A DNA stretch of 64,000 bases, taken from Holosporales bacterium (lineage in GTDB: Bacteria > Pseudomonadota > Alphaproteobacteria > JAJTHO01). Within the stretch, counting starts at the first letter, position 1. Every line of letters begins with the position of its first letter. The position numbers were made by a program, and so were the translations under genes. The stretch lies in assembly GCA_046338525.1 (NCBI GenBank), contig JBKDWF010000040.1, positions 46,764-110,763 on the forward strand. The letters run 5' to 3'. The notes under the pieces were generated by a model. The model saw nothing but the letters and a program-made list of their open reading frames with translations. It did no database searches and was not told where the DNA came from. Of this stretch, positions 777-22,285 are shown one piece after another.

Positions 777-1511
777 ATGGGATTCGGCGACAAACTCAAG
801 GCGACTTTTGGCACCGTCAATAGCGGTGACTCACTGCGTCCTGCTCCCTACGCCGGAGAAGACAAGATGGGAGCGTACCCCGCCGATGTTAGCGTTCCCG
901 CATTAGAAGGCAAACGCCAACTGTTCACCACCCGCGTTTTCGCGTTGGCGTTTACCGTGAGCATGCTGCTCAACGTCGTGCTGGCCTTTAGCCTAAGCGT
1001 CCTCATGCCGCTCAAACGGGTTGAACCATTTTTGCTTACCTTCAGCGATAAGAGCCAGCAAATCGTCCGTGTTGAGCCTATCAGCAAGGACGCCAGCGGC
1101 TTTCAGCTTCTCATCGAGAGCATGGCGAATGAATTTGTCAAAATCCGCGAGGAATTTATTTTTGACGAACAGGAACAGCAACGGCGCTGGACACAATACA
1201 TAAGACCTCGCGTACCGCAGCGTGAGTTTGAGTCTTTTCTTAAGGAAAGGGCTGAAGTAATTCCCAAAATTCGCGATGCCGGCCTTGGACTAAATGTTGA
1301 AATCGTTAGAACACAACGAGTAAGTCCCAATACCATCGAAGTATACTTTGAAACAACAATCGTTGATAAACGCGGCACGGTTAAAGGGCGCAATTCTTAC
1401 ATTGCCCGCATTTCGTTTGGCTTCCGGCAACAGGCCATCTCCCTCAGTGAACAATATCTTAACCCTCTTGGGTTTACAGTGCTTACTTATCAACGGATAG
1501 AAGCACGATGA
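777..1511 (+). CDS. virB8: Type IV secretion system protein VirB8
   Basis: Bitopic architecture: a short N-terminus, one TM (FALAFTVSMLLNVVLAFSLSVLM), then a periplasmic NTF2-like domain ending in the VirB8-typical NPLGF motif. The stop overlaps the virB9 start (ATGA). Confidence 0.8.
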   Translation: MGFGDKLKATFGTVNSGDSLRPAPYAGEDKMGAYPADVSVPALEGKRQLFTTRVFALAFTVSMLLNVVLAFSLSVLMPLKRVEPFLLTFSDKSQQIVRVEPISKDASGFQLLIESMANEFVKIREEFIFDEQEQQRRWTQYIRPRVPQREFESFLKERAEVIPKIRDAGLGLNVEIVRTQRVSPNTIEVYFETTIVDKRGTVKGRNSYIARISFGFRQQAISLSEQYLNPLGFTVLTYQRIEAR

Positions 1512-3148: not shown

Positions 3149-3174
3149 TACTACAAAAAATTAAGGAGAGAGCG

Positions 3175-4560
3175 ATGTTACAGAAAATAAAAAGCCACCA
3201 TTTGATCACCGCAGCCTTGTGCCTGTTGTTGATAGGCTGCGCGAGCACGCCATCAGAACAACCAACTGTAAAACCTGTACTACCTATTGCTATAGATAAC
3301 GCAACAAACCGGCCTTTCTTCTGGGCGTACCAAGATCACCTAGGAGACCCTCTACCAAACAGATCCATAAAATCCGTTGTTTTACCCGAAGCCTTGTTAT
3401 CTGATGTATTACTCGGATTAATCGCGGACAGCGATTTACAACTAAATATAGACCCGGAAATTTCTGATCGTGGCCTGCAAAACGTCAACCTATCTGGCAC
3501 CCTTTCCGAAGCGTTAAATACTCTAGCTCAAGATAATGATTTTTTCGTGCTAAGACAGGGGCAGACGCTATACCTGAAACACAGCCTCAGCTACACTGTG
3601 CCCTTGCCTCCATTGGGTTTTTTTAGCGATTATCAAAGAGATAACCCAAAAAGCAACGCGGCATTATATAACGCCTCCCGCAACCCTTACCGCTCTTTTG
3701 TTGAAGCCCTTACCGCCGCCGGAGCTGTCAGTGTCAACGTTGACAGCAAAGAACGTCTGCTTCACTTCACTGCCAGCCGCGCCAGTCTTGCCGCAGTAGA
3801 CGCATTCCTAGAAGAACAGCGCCGCCTACCTACTGTGGCTTTTCGCACCCGAATTATCAGCTACGCCAACACAGCGTCCCCCAACGATCTTATTCCCGGT
3901 GCTAAAGCACAGGGCGATGCTTGGTTAGGAAAATTCAATGCCGATGATATTGTTCGTCACCTTACCGCTCAACGCTTGGGTAATAGCGTTATTGAAAACG
4001 GTCTCATCATTGTTCCCCTTGGCGGTGAAATACACGCCTCCGCCGGGGTTAATTCTGCCACAGAAGGTTGTCCCATGCTGGACAATCCTATAGGAGCATC
4101 ACTGTTGCAAATCGCCACCAGGAATCAAGATGGTGTCTTAGGGGTAAGCCTTACCTTACAAGCTGTTAATCTAGAGCGTCCTAGTGTACCATGCCGCCTG
4201 CCCGATACTTTACCTTTAATTGCCAACACCCAAACCTTTAATATTGAAGGTGGACGTTCCGTGTTCTTGCCCGGTGTCACCATCGGCCAAGACCGCAACC
4301 TAGGTCTGATTCTCGAATCCCCAGCTATTATCGGCCACATTACCGTTAAACCACCCCGCCCATTTCCGTCTAAGCCATTAGTTGTTAACGGTACGGGTAT
4401 TAGCATTTCCCAAGTCACGCCCATCACTCAAGAGCAACCGCCCCTGAAACCTGAGGAGAAACCCGCAAAAGCAGAAAAAAACTCCAAAAACACTAAAGAT
4501 ATAAAATCAAAGAAGAAACACACTAATAAAAAACAAAACACCATCACGTCAGAACAATAA
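3175..4560 (+). CDS. Lipoprotein of unknown function with secretin-N0/STN-like segment, embedded in the T4SS cluster
   Basis: The start was chosen at the ATG at 3175, six nt after an AAGGAGAGAG SD. The ORF track starts it at 3136. Lipobox LLIG|C. The segment NVNLSGTLSEALNTLAQDNDFFVLRQGQTLYLK resembles secretin-N0/STN domains. A beta-rich C-terminal region and a Lys-rich tail follow. It is co-oriented between virB9 and virB10. Confidence 0.6.
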   Translation: MLQKIKSHHLITAALCLLLIGCASTPSEQPTVKPVLPIAIDNATNRPFFWAYQDHLGDPLPNRSIKSVVLPEALLSDVLLGLIADSDLQLNIDPEISDRGLQNVNLSGTLSEALNTLAQDNDFFVLRQGQTLYLKHSLSYTVPLPPLGFFSDYQRDNPKSNAALYNASRNPYRSFVEALTAAGAVSVNVDSKERLLHFTASRASLAAVDAFLEEQRRLPTVAFRTRIISYANTASPNDLIPGAKAQGDAWLGKFNADDIVRHLTAQRLGNSVIENGLIIVPLGGEIHASAGVNSATEGCPMLDNPIGASLLQIATRNQDGVLGVSLTLQAVNLERPSVPCRLPDTLPLIANTQTFNIEGGRSVFLPGVTIGQDRNLGLILESPAIIGHITVKPPRPFPSKPLVVNGTGISISQVTPITQEQPPLKPEEKPAKAEKNSKNTKDIKSKKKHTNKKQNTITSEQ

Positions 4561-4569
4561 AAGTGATTT

Positions 4570-6285
4570 ATGTCACAAATTTTATTGACATATTCTAATT
4601 TTTGGCGATACTGGATACATCGACAAGATCGAGGTAAACAGATCATGGATAAAAGCCCCGGCATTTTCGGGTTTCACAGTTTTTTGCTCATGGCTATTTT
4701 ATGCCTAGCGGTACTAGGCCTATCTGCCTGCGGCAAAGACGAACCGCCCAGCCCACAGCAACAACCGCAACAAGAGCAAAAAGCCGATACCACGCCAGTT
4801 CAGGATCTTCTCAACATTGCCAACCAACAAAAAGAGTCCCCAAAAAAACCAGCCCTCCTAAAAAATCTTACCGGCGACATCAATCTTGGTAGCGGCAATA
4901 CCATTGGCGACGATCAAATTCGTGATATTACTCTTGAAAATGAAGGCGATGAACCACTCACCATCAAAAACATCACCCTCAACCCCCAAAATGTAACGGA
5001 ATTTGTTCTCGGCGGTAATTGCCTAGCCGGAGTTGTGCTTGATCCTTCACGAAAAGCATGCCGCTTAGAAGTTACCTTCAGACCCGTTAACAACCAAGAA
5101 ATTTCCGCCAGCATTGTTATCACCCACACAGGACAAAATGACACTCTCATAATTCAACTTTCCGGTTCCGGTGCAGAAGCCTATATTCCCCCAGAAATTG
5201 CTCAAGAAAAACCCACAGAACCTACCCAACAGCAGATCGAAGCCATGCGTCTGCAGATGGAACGACGCCAGGGACGGCTCTCCAGCACCCCATCGCTCAA
5301 GGGGCAGCTCCGCAATCAATGGATTATGTCCGACGCCGACTACAAAGATATCGGTTACGGTAAAACAACAGCCACCTTTCCCATTGATAGAACGCGGATG
5401 ATTACCAGCGATCGCTATATTCCTGCTGTCTTGGAAAATACCATCAGTTCACAAATTCCCAGAGGCCGGGTTGTTGCCGTTATTGAAAACCACGTTTATT
5501 CTGCCGAAGGTAGAAACATCCTTATCCCAGCAGGTAGCCGCGCTATTGGCGAATACGATGGCTCTAATAAGGCCGGAACGTCACGCCTTACCGTTGTTTG
5601 GAACCGTATCATTCGCCCCGACGGTGTTGGTATAAATGTTCGCTCCCCTTCCGCCGATCCTATGGGGCGTGTTGGTTTAATTGGTGATGTTGACAATCGC
5701 CTTTTCGATAGATTCGGCGTACCTCTACTGATATCCGCCATTGGTGTTGCCGCCAATTACGCCGCCTCACCCTCACAGGTCACTACCACCACGACCACAG
5801 GAGCATTGGGCATTCTTGGAACATCCACTTCAGAAACAACTACTCGGGAAAATCAAGCCGCACGGCAGTTCAGTGCCGATGCAGTACAAAAATCCCAAGA
5901 GTTCATCCAAAACACAATTTCAATTCAACCAATTATTACTGTTCCAGCCGGAACACGCTTCGTTATACTTCCCACACAGGATATCGAATTCAAAAGCCCG
6001 CAGCTCCTCACCGTTGCGGGAGAAGCGGGCAATATTGTCAGCCAAGCGCAGGCTCTTATTCGCGCCCTACAACGCGGAGACATCGCTGGCGGCTCAGAGC
6101 GGCTTATTGAAATTATTGGCCAAGTATCAAAAGCCGGCGCAATGGGGCAGCCAGGATTCGATACGAGCGGCTCTCCTACTGGTGCTTTTGGTGTTGATAA
6201 CAGCGGCACCAATCAAGTAGGAGGTGCCGCAAATAGTTACGGGCCGGGCCGCTCCAATATTAACCCTCCTATAAATAAGCCATAA
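4570..6285 (+). CDS. virB10: Type IV secretion system protein VirB10 (TrbI family)
   Basis: It has a short N-terminus, one hydrophobic segment and a PQ-rich region. The C-terminal VirB10/TrbI domain follows: AVLENTISSQIPRGRVVAVIENHVYSAEGRNILIPAGSRAIGEY...RLTVVWNRIIRPDGVGINV...GDVDNRLFDRFG. The start could instead be the ATG at 4645, which has a GAGG RBS and an LSAC lipobox-like motif. Confidence 0.85.
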   Translation: MSQILLTYSNFWRYWIHRQDRGKQIMDKSPGIFGFHSFLLMAILCLAVLGLSACGKDEPPSPQQQPQQEQKADTTPVQDLLNIANQQKESPKKPALLKNLTGDINLGSGNTIGDDQIRDITLENEGDEPLTIKNITLNPQNVTEFVLGGNCLAGVVLDPSRKACRLEVTFRPVNNQEISASIVITHTGQNDTLIIQLSGSGAEAYIPPEIAQEKPTEPTQQQIEAMRLQMERRQGRLSSTPSLKGQLRNQWIMSDADYKDIGYGKTTATFPIDRTRMITSDRYIPAVLENTISSQIPRGRVVAVIENHVYSAEGRNILIPAGSRAIGEYDGSNKAGTSRLTVVWNRIIRPDGVGINVRSPSADPMGRVGLIGDVDNRLFDRFGVPLLISAIGVAANYAASPSQVTTTTTTGALGILGTSTSETTTRENQAARQFSADAVQKSQEFIQNTISIQPIITVPAGTRFVILPTQDIEFKSPQLLTVAGEAGNIVSQAQALIRALQRGDIAGGSERLIEIIGQVSKAGAMGQPGFDTSGSPTGAFGVDNSGTNQVGGAANSYGPGRSNINPPINKP

Positions 6286-6289
6286 TTTT

Positions 6290-7396
6290 ATGAGCACCCT
6301 CAACAACAGCACCGCCCTTGACAATCCCCTACTCCTAAGGGCTCTGGAACCTATTGAAAATTATTATTCTAGTTCTGCAGTAGAAGAAATCGCCATCAAC
6401 CGCCCTGGCGAAATCATGATCAAAAAACATGGCAAATCTGGATGGGAGACAGTAACAGCAGAAGAGTTAAACCTGCGAAGCCTGCACGCTTTGTGCCGTA
6501 TGCTTGCCAATGTTACCGAACAATCTTTTGATCTCAACGATCTTCCTATTCTTGCAGCGACCTTGCCGCAAGGTCATCGTTTTCAAGCTGTACTTGGCAC
6601 CAACGTACGCTACGAAATGGGGGATACCAATGGCGTGGCAATATGCATAAGACGCTTTGATCTTAATAAAAAATTTAGCCTAGATGATTTTGATTTACGC
6701 CCACAACAAAAAGCTAAAGAAGACCTGGTGCACCGGGGCGTTGAAAAGAAACGTTACAGCGATTTTCCTTACGAAGATTTGGTATCAGCCGTACAACATG
6801 GTGAAGCTGTATTAATATCCGGGGCAACGTCCACAGGAAAAACAACATTTTTAAATGCACTTATTGATTTTATTCCACGCGATCGGCGTATTGTTACCGT
6901 AGAAGATACTCGGGAAGTTGTCGTACCTCACCCTAATCGAGTTCACTTTGTTGTCTCGCGTACCGCTGGAGCCAATAAAATTGGCTATACTCATATTCTC
7001 GACACCGTTGTTCGCATGACTCCTGATGTTATTGTTTGCGGAGAGGTTTCCGTCACAAATGCCAAGAGCATTTACCGTCTGATGACAACGGGGCATTCAA
7101 ACTTTATGGCAACTATTCACGCCGATTCACCGGAAATGGCACTACGCGCGTTTTGGCAAAACCTTACTCAGACCGATCCAGAACTTGATGCCGAAGCCGC
7201 CGTCGAAATTCTCGCCCGCAGCTTTGGCCGGATTGTACAAATTGACCGCTCCTCCGGTAAGCGCATTATAACCGCTGTGGATGCGCCAAATCTGGTTAAA
7301 AAAGTCGCTCATGAAGCATCGGGCATGACAATGGTACAAAAACCTGCTAATACACCAAAAACAAGAGGAAAAAAAGATGGTTCTAAGCCCTTTTAA
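6290..7396 (+). CDS. virB11: Type IV secretion system ATPase VirB11
   Basis: Walker A GATSTGKTT, followed by VTVEDTREV, a Walker B region and a His-box. The N-terminal domain matches VirB11/TrbB traffic ATPases. Confidence 0.9.
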   Translation: MSTLNNSTALDNPLLLRALEPIENYYSSSAVEEIAINRPGEIMIKKHGKSGWETVTAEELNLRSLHALCRMLANVTEQSFDLNDLPILAATLPQGHRFQAVLGTNVRYEMGDTNGVAICIRRFDLNKKFSLDDFDLRPQQKAKEDLVHRGVEKKRYSDFPYEDLVSAVQHGEAVLISGATSTGKTTFLNALIDFIPRDRRIVTVEDTREVVVPHPNRVHFVVSRTAGANKIGYTHILDTVVRMTPDVIVCGEVSVTNAKSIYRLMTTGHSNFMATIHADSPEMALRAFWQNLTQTDPELDAEAAVEILARSFGRIVQIDRSSGKRIITAVDAPNLVKKVAHEASGMTMVQKPANTPKTRGKKDGSKPF

Positions 7397-9461
7397 CCGC
7401 CAAGATTACGCCGAACAGAAACAGGCAACACTATACCTTTTTCAAGTACTTATCGGCTCTATTATTGCCTTCTTTTTCTTTGTTCCCTTGGTCACAGCAA
7501 CGTACACATTTATTAAATTTGGTGTCTCCCAGAAAGTCGTTTTAGCGGTAGAACAATACTTTAGCATGGCCAAAAACCCCATTTCTTGGTGGCAATGGCA
7601 CCTAAACTGGATTACCACTATTCGCCATGGAAATCCTTATGATTGGAGATTTATTTTTTTACCCGTTGAGATTGTTACATCATTAGGCGGCACCTTGGTC
7701 GTTTTTGTCGGCTTTATGTTAAGCAATCCTTACACTTTTCTCGTCACGACTTTTGGAAACGCGCGCATGGCAACCAGCCGCGACATCGACAAGATGCAGC
7801 TCCTTAAAGGTTGGATCGTCGTTCTAGGCGAGTGTCAACGTAAATTTCTTAAGCTTCCTGAAACCTTATCCGTGTTGTGCGTCGCCCCCCCTGGAACAGG
7901 AAAGACAGTCGCTATTGTCGTACCTACTATCCTTACCTGCAATAATGTATCTATGATTATCAATGATGTTAAACCAGAACTGTTTGATATTACAAGCGGA
8001 TATCGCAGTCAACACAGTTTTTGCCTCAAACTAGAATGGGCTGCAACCGACAATCCGGAACGAGGCATTTTCTATCCCCGTTGGAACGCTCTCTCTCCTT
8101 CTTCTATGCCGCCCCCCGGCGCACAGCGCGACTTGTATATTGATCGCTTAGTGAATATTCTTATTGAAGAACCAAAAGGAAGTGCCGATCCACACTGGAC
8201 AAAACGTGGTCGAGCCGTACTGGCCGGATTTATCCACTATCTTTGTTCCAAAATAGAAGCGGGAAACTGGAATAATATCCCCCTGAACTGGCAAGGGAAA
8301 GAGCCAAGTATTCCCATGCTACTCGACTGGATGACCGAAGCCCAAATTTCTGCCCAAGAAAAAGTCGAGCAACTGCGTAAAACCAACCCAATGGCCGCCA
8401 TGAGCGCGGATCCCATGCGTGATCTGCTGACCGATGCCGTGAAAGAATGCCGTGCCGGTAATTACAGCAACCGCGCCATTTTAGAACTTACCGCGTTGGC
8501 TAATACACCTGATAAGGAACGTGGTTCTATCATGTCTACTATGGATGGGGGACTTGTCGTATTTAAAAACAAAGCTGTACGCGATCGTACCAGCCAAAGC
8601 GATTTTTCCTTCATGGACGTGCGCGGGATGCGCGATCCAGTCACGGGAGAATATAAACCAATGAGCATTTATGTCTGCGTGACTCAGCAAGACGCCAAAG
8701 CCTTGGGTGTTATCACCGGTCTTTTAGTCGAAGCTTTATCCGCTTGGCTTGTCGCCTATCCGCCAAAATCCACCACACCCGATGGTCAAAAAGTCGGACC
8801 CTTTCCGGCTTTGTTTGTCCTTGATGAGTTTCCGCAAATGCCTAAGCTAAGGGCTTTAATTGATGGTCCGGCTGTTGGTCGTGGGCAAAAAGTAAGTTTT
8901 TTAATGATTGGCCAAGACTTAGGACAAATCACAGCTGTATACGGAAAAGACGAAGTAGAAACTGTTATCTCAACCACCGCCGCCAAGGTTGTTCTTGCAC
9001 AAAACAACGAGACTACCGCAAAACGCTTTTCAGAAATGGTGGGTCAACGAACAGTAGAAACAGCATCGCGTTCTCGTACTATGGGGGTAAGCCGGGAAAC
9101 AAATCCATTTGCTGCCAACGTTCAACGCAGCTTACAAGGACAGCCGCTCCTCCGCCCCGAAGATTTTATGACCATCCCCAAAGGAAAGCACTACGTTCTT
9201 TACCAAGGATATCTGTCTAGGCCTATTTTATGCGATACACCAGCATATTATAAACACCCATTACTTAGAACCCTTGTGGACCCGAGCAAGGGTGGGAAAT
9301 ACAAAGCTGCTTCCCCTATGCCCGCTTTCATGACCGAACGCCGCAAAGCGGAATACTTAGCCGAACAAGAGCAAGAACATCTTAAAAAAGCCATGCAAGC
9401 CAGCCTAGAGATAGAAGAAACCCAAAAATCAAAACGCTTACCCATAAATTCCGGGGGCTAA
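7377..9461 (+). CDS. virD4: Type IV coupling protein VirD4/TraG family
   Basis: N-terminal TM helices, Walker A VAPPGTGKTV, a Walker B-like LFVLDEFPQM and the length (694 aa) fit T4CP. It overlaps the virB11 3' end by 20 nt. Confidence 0.9.
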   Translation: MVLSPFNRQDYAEQKQATLYLFQVLIGSIIAFFFFVPLVTATYTFIKFGVSQKVVLAVEQYFSMAKNPISWWQWHLNWITTIRHGNPYDWRFIFLPVEIVTSLGGTLVVFVGFMLSNPYTFLVTTFGNARMATSRDIDKMQLLKGWIVVLGECQRKFLKLPETLSVLCVAPPGTGKTVAIVVPTILTCNNVSMIINDVKPELFDITSGYRSQHSFCLKLEWAATDNPERGIFYPRWNALSPSSMPPPGAQRDLYIDRLVNILIEEPKGSADPHWTKRGRAVLAGFIHYLCSKIEAGNWNNIPLNWQGKEPSIPMLLDWMTEAQISAQEKVEQLRKTNPMAAMSADPMRDLLTDAVKECRAGNYSNRAILELTALANTPDKERGSIMSTMDGGLVVFKNKAVRDRTSQSDFSFMDVRGMRDPVTGEYKPMSIYVCVTQQDAKALGVITGLLVEALSAWLVAYPPKSTTPDGQKVGPFPALFVLDEFPQMPKLRALIDGPAVGRGQKVSFLMIGQDLGQITAVYGKDEVETVISTTAAKVVLAQNNETTAKRFSEMVGQRTVETASRSRTMGVSRETNPFAANVQRSLQGQPLLRPEDFMTIPKGKHYVLYQGYLSRPILCDTPAYYKHPLLRTLVDPSKGGKYKAASPMPAFMTERRKAEYLAEQEQEHLKKAMQASLEIEETQKSKRLPINSGG

Positions 9462-9555
9462 TCCATTAAAATGAAAACACATAATTTGTTCATTCCTCTT
9501 GACATAAACCACCATCTTTCCAACAAAAGAAAAACTTGTTTTTAGGATTTTTACC

Positions 9556-9933
9556 ATGGCACAACGTTTATACACTAAATCCCACGAATGGATTGAAGTT
9601 AATGGCGATACAGCCACCGTTGGCATTACTGATTATGCCCAACACGCATTAGGCGATGTTGTCTATGTTGATATACCCGCAGCCGGAAAAATCGTTACAG
9701 CCGGCGCACCTGCAGCAGTAGTGGAATCAGTAAAAGCCGCCAGTGAGGTTTATGCACCAGTTTCTGGAACAATTACAGAAAGTAACGCTACTATTCAACT
9801 TGATCCATCTCTGGTCAACCGTGCTGCTGATAACGACGGTTGGTTTTTTCGTCTAAAAATTGCTAATAATAATGAACTTAAAAACCTACTCGATGAAACG
9901 GCTTATAAAAATTTATTATCAAGTTTATCATAA
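9556..9933 (+). CDS. gcvH: Glycine cleavage system H protein
   Basis: YTKSHEWIEV...GITDYAQ...VESVKAASEVYAPVSG carries the lipoyl-lysine motif and is typical of GcvH (125 aa). Confidence 0.85.
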   Translation: MAQRLYTKSHEWIEVNGDTATVGITDYAQHALGDVVYVDIPAAGKIVTAGAPAAVVESVKAASEVYAPVSGTITESNATIQLDPSLVNRAADNDGWFFRLKIANNNELKNLLDETAYKNLLSSLS

Positions 9934-9939
9934 GATTTT

Positions 9940-10506
9940 TTGGAGGCTACTTTGCCCACTTTAACTTTGGCTGATTATTTTACCCTAACCAGACTTGTTG
10001 CGGTTGTACCGTTACTTTTATTCTGGTGGCTTCCAGGGGGTGCATGGTTAGCCTTTGCTGTGTTAGCTGTTGCCTGTCTTACAGATTTTGCCGACGGAAT
10101 TATTGCTCGTCATCGCAAGGAGATTTCCCCATTTGGAACCATGATCGACCCTATTGCGGATAAAGTCTTGGTTATCTCTGCTTTATTAATGCTCGCCTTA
10201 AGTGGGATTCTGACCCTAATAGGGTTGGTGGCGTTTTGGATTATCTTATGGCGGGAAATTATCGTTTCTGGCCTACGAGAATACTTGGCTCAGCGCGGCT
10301 TATCTATGCCAGTAACCCCCATGGCGAAATACAAAACTGCTGCGCAGATGCTTGCCCTGTCCGGGTTATTTTTTGAACACGCTTGGCGCGGCGGTAACGC
10401 TGGCGCGTGGCTGTGGAGCGAAGGCGGCTTACTGCTGGCCACCGTCCTGACAGTATGGACGGGCATTGCTTATGGTAAGGCGACGATTGAGGCGTTGAAA
10501 GGGTAG
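9940..10506 (+). CDS. pgsA: CDP-diacylglycerol--glycerol-3-phosphate 3-phosphatidyltransferase (CDP-alcohol phosphatidyltransferase family), TTG start
   Basis: CDP-OH_P_transferase motif DFADGIIARHRKEISPFGTMIDPIADKVLV in a multi-TM protein. The start is an in-frame TTG, GGAGG-preceded. Confidence 0.7.
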   Translation: MEATLPTLTLADYFTLTRLVAVVPLLLFWWLPGGAWLAFAVLAVACLTDFADGIIARHRKEISPFGTMIDPIADKVLVISALLMLALSGILTLIGLVAFWIILWREIIVSGLREYLAQRGLSMPVTPMAKYKTAAQMLALSGLFFEHAWRGGNAGAWLWSEGGLLLATVLTVWTGIAYGKATIEALKG

Positions 10507-10518
10507 GCCACCTCTATT

Positions 10519-10556
10519 AATACCATTTTGCAATCAATTGATTGTAAAATGGTATT
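10519..10556. terminator. Bidirectional hairpin between convergent pgsA and rsmB
   Basis: A 17-bp inverted repeat, aataccattttgcaatc / gattgtaaaatggtatt, with loop aatt and one mismatch. It overlaps the rsmB stop codon. Confidence 0.45.
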
Positions 10557-11847
10557 AGTTACGCTTCCACGCTGCCACAAAAAAACCATCTGTTCCATGT
10601 TGATGGGGCGTAAGCTGAAGACTATTTTCTTTAATCCCAACCAACTCACCCAACCCTGCCCTGCTGAATGCTTCTTTCATCACCAGCGGTGAAAATCCTA
10701 CTTCTACCTCATTAAACCAAGCAACTTGGGCATCATTTTCCTCACCAAGGAGTGAGCACGTCGCGTACCACAATTCTCCGCCCGGTTTTACTAATCGACC
10801 CGCCTGACTAAGAATAGCACGTTGCTTTGCTACTAATTCTTGAACATCTGCCGCCGTATAACGAAAACGGGCATCCGGGTTGCGTCGCCAAGTGCCAGTA
10901 CCTGTACACGGTGCATCAACTAAAACGCGATCGAATTTTCCGGCATTGCTAACGCACCAGCGATCTTCCATCAATCGCACCGTAGCGTTATGCACCCCCG
11001 CCTTGCGAATGCGGCGTTTGGCTTCCTCTAACCTCTTTGAAATAATATCAAGGGATACCAGCCTCCCCTTGTTTTCCATACTTGCAGCTAGAGCCAAACT
11101 TTTTCCCCCTGCACCGGCACAAAAATCAAGCACCGCCATTCCCGACTTTACCCCCACCAAGAGGGCAGCAAGCTGAGCCGCCTCATCCTGAATTTCCGCA
11201 TGCCCATTTTTCAAAGCAGGCAGACGATCAAAAGCAAAACGTTGACCTATCCTAATCCCCAACGGCGAGTGCGGCGTGGGCTGAGCGGACAAACCCGATG
11301 CCCTAACCTGCTCCAGCAACGCCATCCTATCAATGTGCAAGGTATTGACCCGCAAATCTACCGGTGCTTGTTTTTGTAGTGCATCAAGCAATATTGGCAG
11401 GCAATCCCCATAGCGCGCTTCCAACGTACTTGCCGCCCAGTCCGGACATTCTCCCTTCACCGCTAGCGGCATACTCACCTCGGCTTCGGTATCCACATGG
11501 AGACGTTCCAACTTTCGCCGCTCTCCGCCCGTTAGAGGTGCTGGAGCATATTGACTACCATTATAAATATTGGCCAGCGCTGCTGGCGTCTGACCCTCTA
11601 CAATAAGATGATACGCAAGAAGCCCCAAACGCGGCGTCCAATCTGCACCAGCCCGCACCAGCCTCCAAGTCAAGCGTACTCGGTACCGAAGAACACCATA
11701 CACTAATGCAGCAAGATGCTGCCTATCTCGGCTTCCTGCAAAACGATGTCTTCTACCCCAATGATGTAGCTCCCGATCCACAGGAACACCACCATGCGCA
11801 GCGGTAAGAATCTCTAAAGCCGCACTGGCCAACGCTGCCGGGGTCAT
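10555..11847 (-). CDS. rsmB: 16S rRNA (cytosine967-C5)-methyltransferase RsmB/Sun
   Basis: NusB-like N-terminus. SAM-binding motif DFCAGAGGKS. Motifs DRVLVDAPCTGTG and a PC/TC catalytic cysteine. Confidence 0.8.
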   Translation of the reverse strand: MTPAALASAALEILTAAHGGVPVDRELHHWGRRHRFAGSRDRQHLAALVYGVLRYRVRLTWRLVRAGADWTPRLGLLAYHLIVEGQTPAALANIYNGSQYAPAPLTGGERRKLERLHVDTEAEVSMPLAVKGECPDWAASTLEARYGDCLPILLDALQKQAPVDLRVNTLHIDRMALLEQVRASGLSAQPTPHSPLGIRIGQRFAFDRLPALKNGHAEIQDEAAQLAALLVGVKSGMAVLDFCAGAGGKSLALAASMENKGRLVSLDIISKRLEEAKRRIRKAGVHNATVRLMEDRWCVSNAGKFDRVLVDAPCTGTGTWRRNPDARFRYTAADVQELVAKQRAILSQAGRLVKPGGELWYATCSLLGEENDAQVAWFNEVEVGFSPLVMKEAFSRAGLGELVGIKENSLQLTPHQHGTDGFFVAAWKRN

Positions 11848-12938
11848 GATAGCACCGCCAGCACATCGGCATCTTTTACGTCCCGCCGTTCAACGGCGTT
11901 TCCAATAGAATTAAGCAAAATAAATGTTTTTTTACCACCAACGGTTTTTTTATCGCTTTCCATTACTTTTAATAAATCATGGGGTTTTAAAGTAAAGCTA
12001 GGCAATAAGTCTTTTAAAGTACGAGGATACTCAAGACCATCGAGATGATCCTCAATCGCCACTACTTGATGTGCTTCTAACATGTCTAAACGAGCCGACA
12101 ACCTTGCCGCAAGCCGAATTCCATACGCTACTGCTTCGCCATGAAGAAGAACACTGTTGTTATAACCAACAGCAGCTTCTAATGCATGACCAAACGTATG
12201 ACCAAAATTAAGCAATGCCCGAACTCCAGCTTCACGCTCATCTTTGCTAACGATTAAAGCTTTAGTACGACAGCTATGGGAAATAGCTATTTTTAAAGCT
12301 TCATCATCTCCGTCCAGTATTGCTTGGGCATGACTTTGGCACCATGCAAAAAAACTTGCATCATCAATAAGACCGTATTTTAAAATTTCCGCGTAACCAG
12401 CGCGACGTTCCCGCATGGGTAGTGTCTTTAAGCAATCCAGATCAATAATAACCCGCACCGGTTGGTAAAATGTTCCTATTAAATTTTTACCGGCATGAGT
12501 ATTGATGGCTGTTTTTCCGCCAACAGAACTATCCACTTGGGCTAAAAGAGTTGTAGGAATTTGAACAAAAGGAATACCCCGCAGGGCTATACTGGCCACA
12601 AAACCGCCCAAATCACCAACAACCCCTCCACCTAATGCAATGAGAAGCGTCTTACGATCAATAGGCCAACCTAGGATTTTTTCCAAAACTTCTTGTAAAA
12701 CGGTAAAACTTTTTGCTTCTTCTCCCGCAGGGACAATAAGAGGAAGAATAGCCTTGTTACCAAGAATTTTCTCAATAGTTTTTTGGTATAAAGGAGCAAC
12801 ATTTGTATCGCTAAGTAAGATAATTTTTTTGGTTACATCTAACCATGGTGTAAGCTCTTTTTCTAAATGTGCTAAGCTACCGTTAGAAATCGTAATGTCA
12901 TAACGATGATGCTGTGTTTGTACAGAAATAGAAGTCAT
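11844..12938 (-). CDS. aroB: 3-dehydroquinate synthase
   Basis: GGGVVGDLGGF, a KTAINT motif and HGEAV..GIR: NAD- and metal-binding motifs of AroB (364 aa). Confidence 0.9.
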   Translation of the reverse strand: MTSISVQTQHHRYDITISNGSLAHLEKELTPWLDVTKKIILLSDTNVAPLYQKTIEKILGNKAILPLIVPAGEEAKSFTVLQEVLEKILGWPIDRKTLLIALGGGVVGDLGGFVASIALRGIPFVQIPTTLLAQVDSSVGGKTAINTHAGKNLIGTFYQPVRVIIDLDCLKTLPMRERRAGYAEILKYGLIDDASFFAWCQSHAQAILDGDDEALKIAISHSCRTKALIVSKDEREAGVRALLNFGHTFGHALEAAVGYNNSVLLHGEAVAYGIRLAARLSARLDMLEAHQVVAIEDHLDGLEYPRTLKDLLPSFTLKPHDLLKVMESDKKTVGGKKTFILLNSIGNAVERRDVKDADVLAVLS

Positions 12939-13041
12939 CAGTAGAGTATAACCACTTTATTTTTTGAGAAAACTTAATAACACTCTTCTTCCTATAATTT
13001 TTTTTAGAAATGGTTGTAGTAGTAAGTAGTGCCCATAAAAG

Positions 13042-13272
13042 TGGGGATAACTTTTTTATCTTTTTTATACACAAAGTTTTCCACAGTTATTTGTATGAAA
13101 ATACTTTTTAAAATAAGGAATTAAAAATTATCCCCAAGGATTAAAGCACTTTTGTTCACAGTGTTTTTTTTACCAAAAACTCATATAAGAAGAATAGAGG
13201 AGTGCGTATAGTTTTGCTATACTCTTAAAATAGGCCTGTTATCCACAATCTATCCACAAGCCTATGGATAAT
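13042..13272. promoter_or_regulatory. Cluster of six DnaA-box-like 9-mers in AT-rich intergenic DNA (candidate oriC or DnaA-regulated region)
   Basis: One perfect box: TTATCCACA at 13239-13247. Five one-mismatch boxes: tggggataa at 13042-50 (reverse); TTTTCCACA at 13076-84; TTATCCCCA at 13128-36; CTATCCACA at 13250-58; tatggataa at 13263-71 (reverse). Confidence 0.45.
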
Positions 13273-13999
13273 TATAATTTGCTACAAAAACCTTTAGTAG
13301 CGACAACACCACAATCGCTAAAATTGCTATTCCCACAAGGATTTGCGCTGGAACAATAATAAAAAATATTTGTACCTGTGGCATGAGGCGTGACAACATT
13401 CCAACAGCTATATTGAAAATAATTCCTAAAATAAGCAGTGGTGCAGCTAATTGAACACCGATATGAAAAGCATCAGCGAAGATGCGGCTTAGATGATTGC
13501 TTGCATCAATAATATTGAATGTTGTACCAATAGGGAAAGAAATATAGCTTTGCGCCAAAGCCTTAAAGGTGTTGTGGTGAAGTTCAGCGGTAAAAATAGC
13601 AGTCACCCCAGCCATCGTTAAAAACACGGAAAATAAGTTGCCCTGTTGCCCAAGGCTTGGGTTTAACAGTGAGGCATTTGACATCCCTGTTTGTAAACCA
13701 ATAATAGAACCGGCAACATCCAAGGCACTGAGCAGAAATTTTGCCATTAATCCAAAAAAAACGCCAATGGCAATTTCTTGAATTATATAAACAAATGTTT
13801 GTAGACCACTTTCTGGAACAGAAGGAAGTGGGGTAAGAGGCCAAAGAACTAAGCTGAAAAGGATAGCAAAGGCTAGGCGCACTTTTGCAGGAACAAATAT
13901 TTGATCCAAGCCAGGCATTAAAGAAATAAGGCTCCCTACCCGACAAAAAGTCATTAAAAAAGCAAATGTTTCCTGCGGAAGAAGATTTAGCAGAGACAT
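13262..13999 (-). CDS. fliR: Flagellar biosynthetic protein FliR
   Basis: 245-aa polytopic membrane protein. Its N-terminus TFAFLMTFCRVGSLISLMPGLDQIFVPAKVRLAFAIL is typical of FliR. It lies directly downstream of fliQ. Confidence 0.85.
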   Translation of the reverse strand: MSLLNLLPQETFAFLMTFCRVGSLISLMPGLDQIFVPAKVRLAFAILFSLVLWPLTPLPSVPESGLQTFVYIIQEIAIGVFFGLMAKFLLSALDVAGSIIGLQTGMSNASLLNPSLGQQGNLFSVFLTMAGVTAIFTAELHHNTFKALAQSYISFPIGTTFNIIDASNHLSRIFADAFHIGVQLAAPLLILGIIFNIAVGMLSRLMPQVQIFFIIVPAQILVGIAILAIVVLSLLKVFVANYNYP

Positions 14000-14000
14000 C

Positions 14001-14267
14001 CTAACTGCCTTGAATCATGCGTTGGAAAAGTTCCAATGTGAATGATTGTAATGTGTTAAACATAAAAGGAAGAAACAACGCAGTTGCGGCAAAAACAGCA
14101 ATGACTTTTGGTACAAAAGACAAGGTGCTTTCTTGAATTTGGGTAAGAGCCTGAAACAAAGATATCACAAGTCCAACAATAAGAGTGATAATCAGCAGCG
14201 GCGCCCCAACCTTGAGGGTCGTCCAGAGCGCTTGTTGGGTAATCTCTAAAACATCACTGAAATTCAT
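14001..14267 (-). CDS. fliQ: Flagellar biosynthetic protein FliQ
   Basis: 88 aa with two TMs. The FliQ signature is QQALWTTLKVGAPLLIITLIVGLVISLFQALTQIQE. Confidence 0.85.
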   Translation of the reverse strand: MNFSDVLEITQQALWTTLKVGAPLLIITLIVGLVISLFQALTQIQESTLSFVPKVIAVFAATALFLPFMFNTLQSFTLELFQRMIQGS

Positions 14268-14327
14268 GGTTAAAGACTTAAAAGCAAAGAGTTGCCAAAT
14301 AGTAAATAACTGGGGAAATGTAAGATT

Positions 14328-15242
14328 ATGACGGTTCTTCTTTTACAGTGTTTAGTGCCTTTATATATTTATGTTTTATTAGGGTTTTATGCTGGGCGCG
14401 TTTTAAAAATAGACAGACAACAGGTGGCGCGCTTAGTGATTTATCTGATTGCACCGTTGATGTTTTTAGGGTCGGTGAGCATTGCGCCATTGGATATTAG
14501 GTATTTACTGTTACCAGTTGTTACTTTTTTTCTGGCAGTTGTTATGAGTGGATTGATGTTTTTTTTGTCGGGAAAGGTTTGTCCTGATGCTCGCCGTTAT
14601 CTTATCACTTCAGCATCTGGCACTGGAAATACAGGGTATTTTGGTGTCCCAGTATTTTTGAGTTTTGCTCAACCGGAATCATTGGGTGTGTATATGCTGG
14701 CAATGCTGGGGTTCACCTTTTTTGAGGCTAGTATAGGTTATTATCTTATTGCACGGGGCAATTATTCGGTGCGGGATAGTGTACGACGATTGTTCACATT
14801 ACCCACGTTATATGCAGTGGGGCTGGGGCTGTTGGTTAATGCGAGTGGGGCAGGTATTCCTGCTTGGATGTTGACGGGTCTTGAGCAGATACGCGGAGCC
14901 TATGTAGTACTTGGTATGATGTTGGTGGGTGTGGGATTATCTGCCGTTCGGCGACTTCAAGTTGATGTTCCTTTTACCTCAATGTTATTGTTGATGCGAT
15001 TTATTTTTTGGCCGCTGTTGGTAATGGGAGTGTTGGTTTTTGATTCTATATTTTTAGGGTTTTTTGATTCATTGGGGCGTACAGTTTTATGGGTGTTAGC
15101 GATTGTGCCGTTGGCGGCAAATACAGTGGCTTTTGCTAGTGAAATGAACCTGCATCCAGAAAAAACAGCTACGGCGGTAGTGATTAGCACAGTGTTAGCG
15201 GTGCTTACCGTGCCGCTTATTGCACCATTACTTTTCTTTTGA
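14328..15242 (+). CDS. AEC (auxin efflux carrier / malate permease-like) family transporter
   Basis: 304-aa polytopic membrane protein with two repeated five-TM halves typical of the AEC/Mleu family. Confidence 0.7.
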   Translation: MTVLLLQCLVPLYIYVLLGFYAGRVLKIDRQQVARLVIYLIAPLMFLGSVSIAPLDIRYLLLPVVTFFLAVVMSGLMFFLSGKVCPDARRYLITSASGTGNTGYFGVPVFLSFAQPESLGVYMLAMLGFTFFEASIGYYLIARGNYSVRDSVRRLFTLPTLYAVGLGLLVNASGAGIPAWMLTGLEQIRGAYVVLGMMLVGVGLSAVRRLQVDVPFTSMLLLMRFIFWPLLVMGVLVFDSIFLGFFDSLGRTVLWVLAIVPLAANTVAFASEMNLHPEKTATAVVISTVLAVLTVPLIAPLLFF

Positions 15243-15250
15243 TGGGGTCA

Positions 15251-15347
15251 TATACTCCTTGCACATGAAGAATGTGCAAGGGATTCGCTCAAGCGCCGCG
15301 CGGGCTGTACCACTCGCAAGCTTAGATAGGAAGTCTTCATGTGCGAG
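15251..15347. repeat. Structured ~100-bp repeat, copy 1 (second copy at 49651-49757)
   Basis: The 70-nt core tatactccttgcacatgaagaatgtgcaagggNttcgctcaag.gccgcgcgggctgtacc.ctcgcaag is about 95% identical to the second copy. It has an internal hairpin (ttgcacatg/catgtgcaa) and long-range complementarity (gcacatgaag...cttcatgtgc). It lies between convergent genes. Confidence 0.6.
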
Positions 15348-15834
15348 TAGATTCGGAAATTTTTTCCCCCCAAGACGCAACGAGTTTTTTTTGTATATTA
15401 ATATTGTTTTTTATAGCCGTTTCGTGACGCCAAATAAAAATGGCTCGAATAAGTTGTGGTAGAACAATAATTATACCCCATCCAAAGCCAGCAGCACACA
15501 AGATTCCAAGCCATTCACGGGCATCATTGAGAACATCAAACCCTGCCGCTAGGCTCCATCCTAAAGGAAGAACCTTAATGAGGGTTGGAGCAACACCAGC
15601 AGCATTCATAATAAGAACGGATAATGCTATACGTTTATTAGGATGTTTATCCCATGACCAAGCTACTAAACCGGGCAACATACCCAGTGTACAAAGGAGA
15701 ACTCCAGAAAGAGATATTAAAGATATACAGATAACAATAAGTCCGTAAAGAAATGTTATCTTTCCTGTCCACGAATTTTTTTCTGATTGTTTTTTGGCTT
15801 TAAGTGTTTCTTTTGATTTATCTAGGGTTACCAT
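15337..15834 (-). CDS. Small polytopic membrane protein (165 aa), hypothetical; downstream partner of the kinase-fold protein
   Basis: 3-4 predicted TM segments. It is four nt downstream of the 681-aa gene on the same strand. It is AT-rich like its partner. Confidence 0.55.
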   Translation of the reverse strand: MVTLDKSKETLKAKKQSEKNSWTGKITFLYGLIVICISLISLSGVLLCTLGMLPGLVAWSWDKHPNKRIALSVLIMNAAGVAPTLIKVLPLGWSLAAGFDVLNDAREWLGILCAAGFGWGIIIVLPQLIRAIFIWRHETAIKNNINIQKKLVASWGEKISESTRT

Positions 15835-15838
15835 GATT

Positions 15839-17884
15839 TTACATCCTCAATACGAAAAAAAAAATCGCAAAAAATAGAGCGACAATCGGAGAAAATCGTG
15901 CTGTTTTTAAAGCAACAAGGGCATTCATGTCGCGTAAAACATGGCGATGCAGAAGAATTTTTTTATCAAGTCTTACGTATTCGTTGCGTGCATTTTCAAA
16001 TTCGATAGAATCTTTCTGGCGTTCTTGGGGACTATCAATAATATCCAAAATTTCTGCAATATATCCATTTTCGGCAACCTGCTCAAGGCTTTTTCTAATC
16101 CGTGCTCGACGTGGCTCACTGTTAAAATAGTCAAGATTCTGTTTCAATGTATTACTAAACCAAGTTGTTATTTTTGGAAAAGATTTGTTACCATATTTTT
16201 GATTAATTAAATGAAAAATACGAAGCAAGGCAACGTGAGATATCCAAGGTTGGCTCGTATCGTTTAATCGATGGAAATACTCTTCTTTGAGAAATTTACA
16301 GCGGCTGGCAATAAAGGCAGCAAGATGTCGATCGATTACAGAATTTTTATAATTTTGATGGGCAGTTTTAGCAAGCGTAGCCTCAAGAGCTATCAAGATA
16401 TCCTCAATCTCTAAGACTATTGTATCTTCAAAAAGAGGGCTTAAGCATGGCACACGTGTATTGAGTTCATAGATACATCGTTCAAATCCATAGCCAAGAC
16501 CTTGATTTATTATAACTCCTTTGAGAAGTTCTAGAATTTTATCAAGGCGACTTTGTTCTTCAGAAACAATATCTTGAGCGCGCAACCAAGCAGATGCAAG
16601 TCCATATCGGATAATATCTACACAAAACTGTCGTTTTTGATTATCATAAAGTCCTGTGAGAAACAGACCACCAAGTCCAGCTACGTCAATGGCAATACCT
16701 TGATAAAACAAGGGAGCTTCGGGGTAGAGCGCAATTAAAGCTTTTGCACTGGTAACGTTGAGCGGTTGGTTAGTGCGCGTAGCAACGGCAAATATTTCAT
16801 GTAAGGAATTAGCAGTATCGTCGGATTCAAGACTTCGACGAAGCCAGATATTTATTTTATTATCTTGGAGAATTTTGACAGAACCACCATCTTTAGTTTT
16901 TCCTAACGCATAGACAAGAGAAGGAAGATTTATATAGTTCATATTATTAAATACCAACGCGCGACCAGCTTTTTTGGCGAATGTCGGTACCTTAGGAACA
17001 ATAGTTTGCCCCCCTAACCATTGTAATATATCATTAATTGTCCACCGATTATTTGGATTGTCATGAAGGCATCCTTTAAGAAAGTCCATGGTTTCTTTTG
17101 AAAAACGTTTGTCACCGATGAAGGTAGCTACGGTACCGTTGGTTGTTTTTTTAAAGAGGAGGCTGTCCAATGTAAGATTTTCAACGGGATTTCCCCCCTC
17201 TAAAAGATGAAGACTAAGCAAGCCAAGATTGTAAATGTCTTCTTGAAAGCTAGTGGTGTTTTTTTTATAAGCAGGTTCTACAAGCATCATTTCGATAGGC
17301 TCAACCGTAAAAGGAATCCGCCATCCAGGATGCCCCATAAAGCACTCACCTAAAACGATGGATGTTTTTGTATGATCTGTGTAAAAGATATTGCTTGGAG
17401 ACAATGCTCTGTAAAATAAAGAATTTTTATCAAGTTCGGCAAATGTATTGATAATGGGTCGAATAAAGCGTTCGCGAACATCCAATTCTGTCCAAGGTGT
17501 GATTTTTTGTTTCCCGTTGTCGGGAAATACTGACGATCCAGGTAAAGGAGTGATAACAAATAAAAGGCTGCCAAAACCGGCACCAAGTGTCTTTTTTTCA
17601 GATGCTTCAGGGTGAATAATAATTGTATCTGATGTTTTTTTGAGTTGTTCGATCATATCGTAGCGTGGCGACATTAATTTATCGGCCATAAAAGCAACCA
17701 TCAAACGTTCTTCGTTCAGTAAATCCGTTGCTTTAAAGGCAAAAACTTGACCGAAAGATAGGTCGTGCATAAATTGAGGGATAATATCCCCCATATGCAC
17801 AACATACCGATCATTCAGAATAATCCGATTTTTTTTACGGCCATCGATGCCGTTTTGAGATTGAGGCTCTTTTGTTGAATTCAC
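15839..17884 (-). CDS. Protein-kinase-fold protein with degenerate catalytic motifs (predicted pseudokinase/atypical kinase), C-terminal TM anchor
   Basis: Kinase subdomains are recognisable in canonical order and spacing: a degenerate Gly loop DLSFGQV; VAFM in place of VAIK (Lys to Met); a catalytic loop YRALSPSNIFY (cf. [HY]RDLKPENIL, Asp to Ala); GEC in place of DFG; VEP in place of APE; DIYNLGLLSLHLLEG (cf. DxWSxG); R280. About 370 aa of helical sequence follow. The protein ends in a hydrophobic tail, FSPIVALFFAIFFFVL. Confidence 0.6.
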   Translation of the reverse strand: MNSTKEPQSQNGIDGRKKNRIILNDRYVVHMGDIIPQFMHDLSFGQVFAFKATDLLNEERLMVAFMADKLMSPRYDMIEQLKKTSDTIIIHPEASEKKTLGAGFGSLLFVITPLPGSSVFPDNGKQKITPWTELDVRERFIRPIINTFAELDKNSLFYRALSPSNIFYTDHTKTSIVLGECFMGHPGWRIPFTVEPIEMMLVEPAYKKNTTSFQEDIYNLGLLSLHLLEGGNPVENLTLDSLLFKKTTNGTVATFIGDKRFSKETMDFLKGCLHDNPNNRWTINDILQWLGGQTIVPKVPTFAKKAGRALVFNNMNYINLPSLVYALGKTKDGGSVKILQDNKINIWLRRSLESDDTANSLHEIFAVATRTNQPLNVTSAKALIALYPEAPLFYQGIAIDVAGLGGLFLTGLYDNQKRQFCVDIIRYGLASAWLRAQDIVSEEQSRLDKILELLKGVIINQGLGYGFERCIYELNTRVPCLSPLFEDTIVLEIEDILIALEATLAKTAHQNYKNSVIDRHLAAFIASRCKFLKEEYFHRLNDTSQPWISHVALLRIFHLINQKYGNKSFPKITTWFSNTLKQNLDYFNSEPRRARIRKSLEQVAENGYIAEILDIIDSPQERQKDSIEFENARNEYVRLDKKILLHRHVLRDMNALVALKTARFSPIVALFFAIFFFVLRM

Positions 17885-18075
17885 GCTGAAATTAACCTTA
17901 ATTAGAATGAATAAAGATTAGGGTATTATAAAAGTACTAACCTTTGGTAATCGCTCATTGGTGGCTTGAGGTTAATAGAGATACCCTACAATTTACATTA
18001 TGCCCCTTGCTGTTAAGATTTGCCTGGCGTAAGGTGCGCTTCTATTTCAAACAGTAGAACAGCAAAGGGTGTGTC

Positions 18076-21739: not shown

Positions 21740-22285
21740 TTATGCTGTTTGTGCTTTCTTGGTGCTGGCTTTTTCTAAGGCCACATTAAATTCTGCTAGC
21801 GAGCAAAGGCCAAGCTCTACTGGATTGATTGATTTTAGATTTTTTTGATTCCAGTGCTCTTTGTCTCGGATGCGAGCGATGGTTGTTTTTGTGGTGCCGA
21901 TAAGCTTGCAAATTGCTGCATCGCTCAATTCTGGGTGTGTTTTAATAAGATAAAAAATAGCATCGGGTTTTTCTCCACGTTTTGTTACTGGAGTATAACG
22001 AGGTCCCTTAACCCGCGGTAAAGCCTTGGGAAGCGTGTTGCTTACAAGGGTCAGACGTGCATCAGGATCGGCTTCACAACGACGAATTTCCTCCAATGTT
22101 AATTGATTAGCAGCTACCGGATCAGCGGGGCGAATCTGGGCATGCACCTCTCCATCGGCCAACGCCTGAATTTCAAGGCTATGCAAACCGCTAAACGTCC
22201 CAATCTGTTCAAATGTTAAAGCGGTATTTTCCAGCAACCAAGCAGCGGTGGCCTTAGGCAACAGGGGGCGGTGCAACGAACTCAT
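21740..22285 (-). CDS. DUF1013-family protein (alphaproteobacteria-specific)
   Basis: The N-terminus LLPKATAAWLLENTALTFEQIGTFSGLHSLEIQALADGEV matches the conserved DUF1013 N-terminal block seen across alphaproteobacteria. Confidence 0.65.
   Translation of the reverse strand: MSSLHRPLLPKATAAWLLENTALTFEQIGTFSGLHSLEIQALADGEVHAQIRPADPVAANQLTLEEIRRCEADPDARLTLVSNTLPKALPRVKGPRYTPVTKRGEKPDAIFYLIKTHPELSDAAICKLIGTTKTTIARIRDKEHWNQKNLKSINPVELGLCSLAEFNVALEKASTKKAQTA

Follow-up and report, generated by a model that had tools for sequence, protein, structure and literature searches.

A degenerate Hanks-type kinase of a Holosporales bacterium belongs to a large bacterial pseudokinase family with a predicted membrane anchor and a small membrane protein encoded alongside

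What can be the role of a protein that carries the motifs of a protein kinase in their proper order but has neither the lysine nor the aspartate of phosphate transfer? This question is raised by a gene for a 681-aa protein in a 64,000-nucleotide stretch (hereafter the window) of a Holosporales bacterium (GenBank assembly GCA_046338525.1, contig JBKDWF010000040.1, positions 46,764 to 110,763). An earlier note on the sequence had mapped kinase motifs onto the product and proposed a conserved fold, an absence of canonical phosphotransfer, possibly retained metal and nucleotide contacts and a resemblance to pseudokinases with new chemistry. The fold and the loss of catalytic residues were found throughout a large family, and the protein is probably a non-catalytic scaffold or switch at the membrane. 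A Holosporales metagenome-assembled genome (MAG) contains a 95%-identical protein that is annotated with the same length of 681 aa. The gene and the relevant parts of its first domain are as follows.

15839-17884, minus strand: the pseudokinase gene (681 aa) from the list of open reading frames (ORFs), with a GTG start at 17884 and the stop codon at 15839-15841.
17000-17827, minus strand: the Hanks-type pseudokinase domain (residues ~20-295).
17390-17413, minus strand: the degenerate catalytic loop YRALSPSN (residues 158-165), in which the catalytic Asp is gone and the Asn is present.
17342-17353, minus strand: LGEC at the DFG position (residues 178-181).

Similarity to protein kinases was detected by several approaches. 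The Pfam model Pkinase (PF00069) matched the C-lobe only (residues 139-288) with an E-value of 3.9e-7 and a score of 30.2 bits, which is under the gathering cut-off of 31.7, and all six sequences tested matched this model, the best at 1.2e-7. A phmmer search of the PDB returned protein kinases only, with SLK as the best match (E 4.9e-5). A profile of six sequences (i.e. the window protein and its five closest homologs) reached 3e-10 and matched 645 PDB sequences, of which all 60 shown were protein kinases; the catalytic loop was aligned to HRDLKPSN, with "vvyRalrPsnlfY" placed opposite "VVHRDLKPSNILY". Comparison of a 150-sequence family alignment by hhalign gave probabilities of 97-98% for PknB (E 1e-11 to 3e-13) and 95-97% for protein kinase A (PKA). 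An AlphaFold2 model derived from 150 family sequences had a mean local confidence (pLDDT) of 92.7 and a predicted template-modelling score (pTM) of 0.88, and superseded a model from only 6 sequences in which the catalytic region was unmodelled (pLDDT 58). The bilobal architecture of Hanks-type, or eukaryotic-like, kinases (i.e. a five-stranded N-lobe with alphaC and a helical C-lobe with alphaF to alphaI) was present in the model, with beta1 at residues 27-34, beta2 at 46-54, beta3 at 61-67, alphaC at 75-83 and beta4/5 at 94-113, followed by alphaE at 133-153, beta7/8 at 166-178, alphaF at 214-229 and alphaG, alphaH and alphaI up to residue 290 (alphaI 283-290). Together, the Pfam, PDB, hhalign and model results indicate that the order of the motifs did not arise by chance, and the N-terminal ~295 residues are predicted to form a complete bilobal kinase fold. 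The conserved protein-kinase fold of the earlier note was thus upheld by profile searches and predicted structure alike, and the alternative outcome of no kinase fold did not occur.

All motifs quoted in that note were located by script at the residues given there (i.e. DLSFGQV at 41-47, VAFM at 63-66, E79, YRALSPSN at 158-165, LGEC at 178-181, VEP at 202-204, DIYNLG at 216-221 and R280); a second VEP is present at 194-196. Conservation was assessed over 155 aligned sequences, comprising the window protein and 154 relatives, to which all family counts below refer. In the N-lobe, the equivalent of the Gly-rich loop (L42-F48, aligned to L49-G55 of PKA) contains one Gly (G45), and the family sequence of this region is L-D-x-P-x-A, with Pro in 103/155 and no Gly-rich loop present. 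The Ala of the VAIK motif corresponds to A64 (Ala in 141/155), with no Lys two residues on. The Lys position itself is M66 in the window protein and Val (75), Ile (47) or Leu (16) in most relatives, giving a family beta3 motif of F-A-L-V-C; V, I, L, A or M occupied this position in 152/155, and any Lys within residues 62-68 was found in only 4 sequences. The possible alphaC Glu at residue 79 was not sustained, Glu being present in only 18/155. A near-invariant Arg (R74, 152/155) is located where alphaC begins, and the N-lobe positions that sandwich adenine keep small residues (A49 in 142/155 and A64).

The C-lobe exhibited a different mixture of loss and retention. The His of HRD is replaced by Y158 in the window protein and present in 144/155, the Arg corresponds to R159 (Arg in 121 and Gly in 30 of the 155) and the Asp position is A160, with Ala in 103, Gly in 16, Asn in 12, Ser in 11 and Asp in none of the sequences. 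The position of Lys168 of PKA is S162 in the window protein and Arg in 135/155, and the equivalent of Asn171 is N165 (Asn in 152/155), producing a family consensus for the catalytic loop of H-R-[A/G/N/S]-I-R-P-x-N. The DFG Asp position is held by E180, with Glu in 87 and Asp in 62 sequences (i.e. acidic in 149/155). This assignment was obtained from hhalign, which paired E180 with Asp184 of PKA, and in the model E180 lies two residues beyond the end of strand beta8 (176-178); the distance from E180 to D216, 37 residues inclusive, equals that from Asp184 to Asp220 in PKA. The alphaF Asp220 and Arg280 equivalents are D216 (Asp in 154/155) and R280 (Arg in 152/155), G179 is present in 154/155 and W281 and W289 are essentially invariant. 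Conserved Cys residues were found at C181 (123/155) and position 67 (102/155). V202-E203-P204 lies at the APE position and aligns with A-P-E, as had been proposed, but the family reads A-x-P with Pro in 133/155 and Glu203 is not conserved; VEP therefore holds the APE position with Pro for Glu, and the APE Glu is lost family-wide. Two insertions distinguish the Holosporales proteins, namely FMHD (residues 38-41), immediately ahead of the degenerate Gly loop, and, within the activation segment, K207, both positions being gaps in 152/155 (i.e. every other family member). These mapping and conservation checks indicate that the earlier residue map was right except for the alphaC Glu.

A pseudokinase is defined by sequence as lacking at least one of the beta3 Lys, the HRD Asp and the DFG Asp, and two of these three were missing in 155/155. 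The residues of a competent Ser/Thr kinase are likewise absent from the window protein, which has M66, A160, no GxGxxG and an acidic residue only at the DFG position. Loss of the catalytic residues is a property of the whole family and no accident of the window copy, and the absence of Lys, HRD Asp and Gly loop from the alignment agrees with the earlier statement that canonical phosphotransfer does not occur. The suggestion of retained metal and nucleotide contacts was borne out in part: the Asn171 and DFG-Asp equivalents are kept, whereas the N-lobe contacts to adenosine triphosphate (ATP; i.e. Gly loop, Lys and alphaC Glu) are gone.

The window copy has diverged further than its relatives. 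Among 78 positions conserved in at least 80% of the family, the window protein keeps 58, the lowest number of the 155 sequences, the others keeping 61 or more (median 72). Retention was 27/41 in the kinase domain versus 31/37 in the C-terminal domain, and the kinase-domain losses include H158Y, R162S, P185H, Q190I, G206Y, R208K, G209N and G211T. The ratio of nonsynonymous to synonymous substitution rates (dN/dS) was measured against the 79%-identical ortholog of a Holosporales relative (locus L005) and was 0.11 overall, 0.084 for the kinase domain and 0.13 for the C-terminal domain; comparison values were 0.22 for the gene directly downstream (the partner gene described below), 0.11 for a neighbouring transporter and 0.065 for fliR. 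These low values indicate that the gene is maintained by purifying selection in Holosporales and is not decaying. Losses from the pocket (i.e. H158Y, R162S, Q190I and R208K) argue against chemistry in the Holosporales copy, and their occurrence in a copy that is still constrained favours a structural role, at least in Holosporales. The window protein is a divergent member of an already inactive family and not a newly evolved enzyme.

The remainder of the protein and the downstream gene comprise the following features.

16031-16999, minus strand: a family-specific, mostly helical domain (residues 296-618, ~320 residues), delimited from the model and from conservation.
15842-16030, minus strand: a long C-terminal helix (residues 619-680), continuous in the model.
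15337-15834, minus strand: the partner gene, encoding a 165-aa membrane protein and beginning 4 nt past the pseudokinase stop codon.

Two short beta-hairpins (310-317 and 392-399) interrupt the helices of the middle domain in the model. Y472, C480 and D518 are invariant and W347, W433, G464, G466, E468, R469 and H520 near-invariant. No Pfam family and no sequence relative in the PDB was found for residues 296-618: a profile of this domain matched designed armadillo repeats in the PDB without any significant stretch, and scattered domains of unknown function in Pfam in 1-2 of 44 members, both of which were regarded as noise. An internal duplication, suggested by a hairpin followed by helices that appears twice in the model, was rejected as hhalign gave a probability of 1.7%. 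The pTM of 0.88 suggests that the kinase and C-terminal domains pack as one unit. Hydropathy analysis shows the final ~20 residues (661-680, nt 15845-15904) to be hydrophobic, and as a hydrophobic tail is also found in distant homologs, this segment is read as a predicted C-terminal membrane anchor.

The partner gene is preceded by a GAGGA sequence inside the last codons of the pseudokinase gene. Its product has a Lys-rich basic N-terminus and hydrophobic stretches at residues 26-60, 68-91 and 107-135; its C-terminal W-G motif is conserved, and P54, A58, D62, N77, G80, G118-W119, P126 and W155-G156 are invariant among homologs. In 81 of 85 loci a homolog was encoded directly downstream of the pseudokinase gene, the stop codon of the first gene often overlapping the start codon of the second, and two of the four loci without it simply reach the end of a contig. 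The partner matched no Pfam, NCBIfam or PADLOC family. A relationship to exosortases was rejected, as the sole match scored 20 bits against a cut-off of 225, was obtained for the window copy only and is an artefact of the hydrophobic segments.

Wider gene neighbourhoods were scored by phmmer for about 70 loci with enough flanking sequence. In Rhodospirillales, 66 loci have purA as the near upstream neighbour in the same orientation (median distance 122 nt), preceded by hisZ in 60, and a convergent rpoH lies downstream in 61 loci, followed by rluD in 55. This very stable block, hisZ-purA-pseudokinase-partner convergent with rpoH-rluD, was recorded at 6163-14766 of locus L001 and across the related loci L006-L085. 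The arrangement, with the gene of the heat-shock sigma factor next to the pair, is the only contextual lead to function, and only a lead. In the window and in L005 the pair has moved to a site between a Mem_trans transporter gene, accompanied by fliQ-fliR, and ssb. With the Rhodospirillales context lost there, the only constant association is the gene pair itself. The region that separates the pair from ssb is presumed to contain the promoter.

17885-18075: spacer between the divergently oriented pseudokinase and ssb genes, the presumed promoter region.

The flagellar or type III export genes fliR (Bac_export_1) and fliQ (Bac_export_3) occupy 13262-14267 on the minus strand, two genes from the pair, and the same arrangement is present in L005; the closest relatives of this fliQ/fliR-bearing genome are Holosporales MAGs. 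A functional link to flagellar export was discarded since these genes adjoin the pair only in Holosporales.

A word-indexed search had retrieved just five relatives, two of Holosporales type (95% and 79% identity) and three from Alphaproteobacteria MAGs (25-29%), and returned the same five proteins whether queried with the single sequence, the 6-sequence profile or the 150-sequence profile. The resulting impression of an orphan was overturned by an exhaustive HMMER search of 1.84 billion representatives of 50%-identity clusters, which revealed a large family. At E<=1e-30 the search yielded 1142 representatives, and nearly all of the top 150 were full-length matches of ~620-780 residues; full-length members are typically ~670-700 aa. 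When each species was represented by a single genome, relatives turned up in at least 375 species genomes. Hosts include Azospirillum (many species), Magnetospirillum, Magnetospira, Thalassospira, Telmatospirillum, Roseospira, Terasakiella, Tistlia, Aliidongia, Dongiaceae, Stellaceae, Virgifigura, the SAR116 cluster and Holosporales, and in the 80 best of these species genomes the carriers of the gene pair were Rhodospirillales-like lineages, SAR116 and Holosporales. The pair was also seen in a few MAGs under the labels Rhizobium, Asaia or Patescibacteria, which may be mislabelled bins. Holosporales have been placed inside Rhodospirillales (PMC6447387), and the spread of the pair is consistent with Holosporales as derived Rhodospirillales. 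Source databases name the proteins "protein kinase family protein" or "hypothetical protein", no NCBIfam or Pfam model covers the family beyond the generic kinase domain and a literature search for this pseudokinase family found nothing. The family is a large and uncharacterised, apparently uncatalogued group of bacterial pseudokinases that have a predicted membrane anchor and keep a constant partner.

Comparison with known systems indicated which features are shared and which are particular to this family. With PknB and other Hanks-type kinases it shares the H-R-x-[IL]-[KR]-P-x-N frame, the alphaF Asp, Arg280, the GHI helices and a cytoplasmic kinase domain tethered to the membrane (here by prediction). 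It differs in the absence of the beta3 Lys, the Gly-rich loop, a conserved alphaC Glu, the catalytic Asp and the APE Glu, in an anchor at the extreme C-terminus without an extracellular sensor domain, and in two additions, the helical domain of ~320 residues on the cytoplasmic side and a small membrane protein as obligate partner. Seven families of bacterial pseudokinases (i.e. ActPs1-3, GLW, CP1, DYD and DLHK) were catalogued in 2025 (O'Boyle et al. 2025, PMC12599244; bSTK Atlas, bioRxiv 10.1101/2025.01.12.632604), and comparison with their published descriptions found none that matches these motifs and this architecture. GLW pseudokinases have G-L-W for HRD, a poly-Leu beta3 (LLLL/W) and no DFG Asp in 100% of members (PMC12599244). 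They resemble the present family in being proteobacterial, in a hydrophobic beta3 Lys position, in lacking the HRD Asp and in having a transmembrane segment C-terminal to the pseudokinase domain, but the family has H-R-A, F-A-L-V-C and L-G-[E/D]-C and falls outside the GLW definition. EssB/YukC is a membrane pseudokinase of Firmicute type VIIb secretion that scaffolds membrane partners (PMC12599244). The analogy extends to a cytoplasmic N-terminal pseudokinase with degraded catalytic motifs, a single membrane span and a scaffold role; EssB is from a different phylum and has an extracellular C-terminal domain, whereas the chain of this family ends at its hydrophobic tail. No specific sequence relationship to EssB/YukC was found, and type VII genes were present in 0/85 loci, the neighbours being purA, hisZ, rpoH and rluD, or fliQ/fliR and ssb in the window. 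The pseudokinase domain of mycobacterial MviN/MurJ (ActPs3) is a membrane-attached, nucleotide-free docking module of envelope biogenesis (PMC12599244). It is actinobacterial, has a deletion of ~40 residues in the activation loop and is fused to a flippase; the present family differs in an activation segment of full length and in a membrane protein that is a separate small polypeptide. Matches to defence-associated models of PADLOC and NCBIfam (i.e. MkoA, MAD6 and LanL) covered the generic kinase domain only and were far below cut-offs, and a reading as a defence system was rejected.

From these findings we favour, with somewhat better than even confidence, a non-catalytic Hanks-type pseudokinase that is anchored to the inner membrane on its cytoplasmic side and probably forms a complex with the small polytopic membrane protein encoded downstream. 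The C-terminal anchor would tether the pseudokinase on this side of the membrane, and the kinase fold would act as a rigid docking platform or a conformational switch and transfer no phosphate. The C-lobe core is kept (i.e. HRD His-Arg in the family, the Asn171 and DFG-Asp equivalents, the alphaF Asp and Arg280-Trp), and the cluster of Arg, Asn and acidic residue may still bind a ligand or metal in most family members. Pseudokinase and partner might jointly transmit or organise something at the membrane, in the manner in which EssB/YukC or the MviN pseudokinase domain scaffold machinery. Three points count against this reading. Hydropathy is the sole indication that the tail inserts into the membrane, and gene adjacency the sole indication of the probable complex. 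The near-invariance of the Asn171 equivalent and the DFG acidic residue, together with Arg at the Lys168 position (135/155), exceeds what a pure scaffold needs and could mean binding of a ligand, metal or nucleotide, or even catalysis.

The same residues are the basis of two alternatives. R162 (in the family), N165 and E/D180 may let the pocket bind a nucleotide, a phosphorylated metabolite or a metal, with occupancy shifting the conformation and a signal passing through the membrane partner without catalysis; such a switch refines the non-catalytic reading and does not contradict it. We regard this as possible though on the unlikely side. It would account for the retention of N165 (152/155), acidic 180 (149/155) and Arg at the Lys168 position and of the small adenine-sandwiching residues (A49 142/155, A64 141/155), and some pseudokinases without the Lys still bind ATP (bioRxiv 10.1101/2025.01.12.632604). 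The N-lobe speaks otherwise, with L-D-x-P-x-A and a conserved Pro in place of a Gly loop, a hydrophobic residue for the beta3 Lys and no conserved alphaC Glu, and the window protein itself has Ser at 162 and Tyr at 158. An atypical enzyme, in which the kinase fold is repurposed for SelO-like AMPylation, SidJ-like glutamylation or another transfer, is less likely than ligand or metal binding and was judged improbable. Here the Asn and the acidic residue would bind metal and residues such as R74 or Cys, His or Asp of the C-terminal domain would be recruited; loss of the catalytic Asp with retention of Asn and a metal-binding acidic residue is indeed shared with SelO and SidJ, R74 is near-invariant (152/155), C480 and D518 are invariant and H520 nearly so, and the pTM of 0.88 suggests that the two domains pack as one unit. 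SelO and SidJ retain the ATP-binding Lys, which this family lacks; SelO binds its nucleotide flipped, and SidJ is distinguished by a nucleotide pocket that has migrated, a calmodulin-binding IQ helix and its setting as a Legionella effector. Moreover, no match to the SelO/UPF0061 Pfam model was obtained at E<=10 for the window protein or at E<=1 for five relatives, there is no similarity in sequence or fold to SelO or SidJ past the generic kinase fold and no calmodulin-dependent or effector context, every N-lobe nucleotide contact is lost, the membrane partner is the only conserved nearby gene as a candidate substrate, and the Holosporales copy lacks several pocket residues yet is under purifying selection. 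New chemistry of the SelO or SidJ type, as the earlier note had envisaged, found no positive support.

Two further explanations concern the Holosporales lifestyle, and both appear very remote. Members of this order live inside eukaryotic cells (PMC11909080), the closest relatives of the window protein are from Holosporales MAGs, and VirB10, VirB11 and VirD4 genes at 4570-9461 encode a type IV secretion system 6-13 kb away that might export the protein as a host-targeted effector, as for the kinase-like effectors of Legionella. However, members of the family are common in free-living Rhodospirillales and SAR116, where their neighbours are housekeeping genes (purA, rpoH), the protein has a predicted membrane anchor and an obligate membrane partner, and the secretion genes are not adjacent in other genomes. 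Alternatively, the gene could be a decaying relic of a reduced endosymbiont genome whose function is gone, in keeping with the fewest family-conserved positions of the 155 sequences (58/78); the intact reading frame of 681 aa, a dN/dS of 0.11 against the 79%-identical ortholog, like that of the neighbouring transporter (0.11), and the retention of an adjacent partner gene all argue otherwise. A more speculative reading, to which we assign only a slim chance, is that the pair forms an undescribed two-protein inner-membrane module of Rhodospirillales, SAR116 and Holosporales, in which the repurposed Arg-Asn-Glu/Asp pocket and the Cys/Asp/His of the C-terminal domain would bind a phospho-ligand or perform non-kinase chemistry and feed a housekeeping process, e.g. 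control of RpoH, the gene for which is convergent with the pair in 61 of about 72 loci that have sufficient flank.

Several other features of the window were recorded. The type IV secretion genes, all on the plus strand, encode a TrbI/VirB10-like protein (4570-6285), a VirB11-type ATPase (6290-7396) and a VirD4/TraG coupling protein (7377-9461), with further ORFs upstream at 777-4560. A homolog of TrcR, a transcriptional cell-cycle regulator, is encoded at 21740-22285 on the minus strand (Pfam E 1.5e-55). The G+C fraction is 0.38-0.43 over 12-20 kb, which includes the pseudokinase pair, versus 0.55-0.61 over 22-30 kb, a stretch with genes for a pyridoxal phosphate-dependent enzyme, purL and glnE; compositional heterogeneity, gene transfer and assembly chimerism are all possibilities for this swing.

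Bacterial pseudokinases have barely been studied, and none of the seven families in the 2025 classification has the motifs described here. Members of this family are present in the well-studied, genetically tractable Azospirillum, Magnetospirillum and Thalassospira and in the abundant marine SAR116, and they offer a clean setting in which to ask what purpose a dead kinase fold has in bacteria. As a small independent character, the shared gene pair also ties Holosporales to Rhodospirillales. The size of the family, its fixed architecture, partner and neighbourhood, and its survival in endosymbiotic Holosporales point to a conserved housekeeping role at the membrane.

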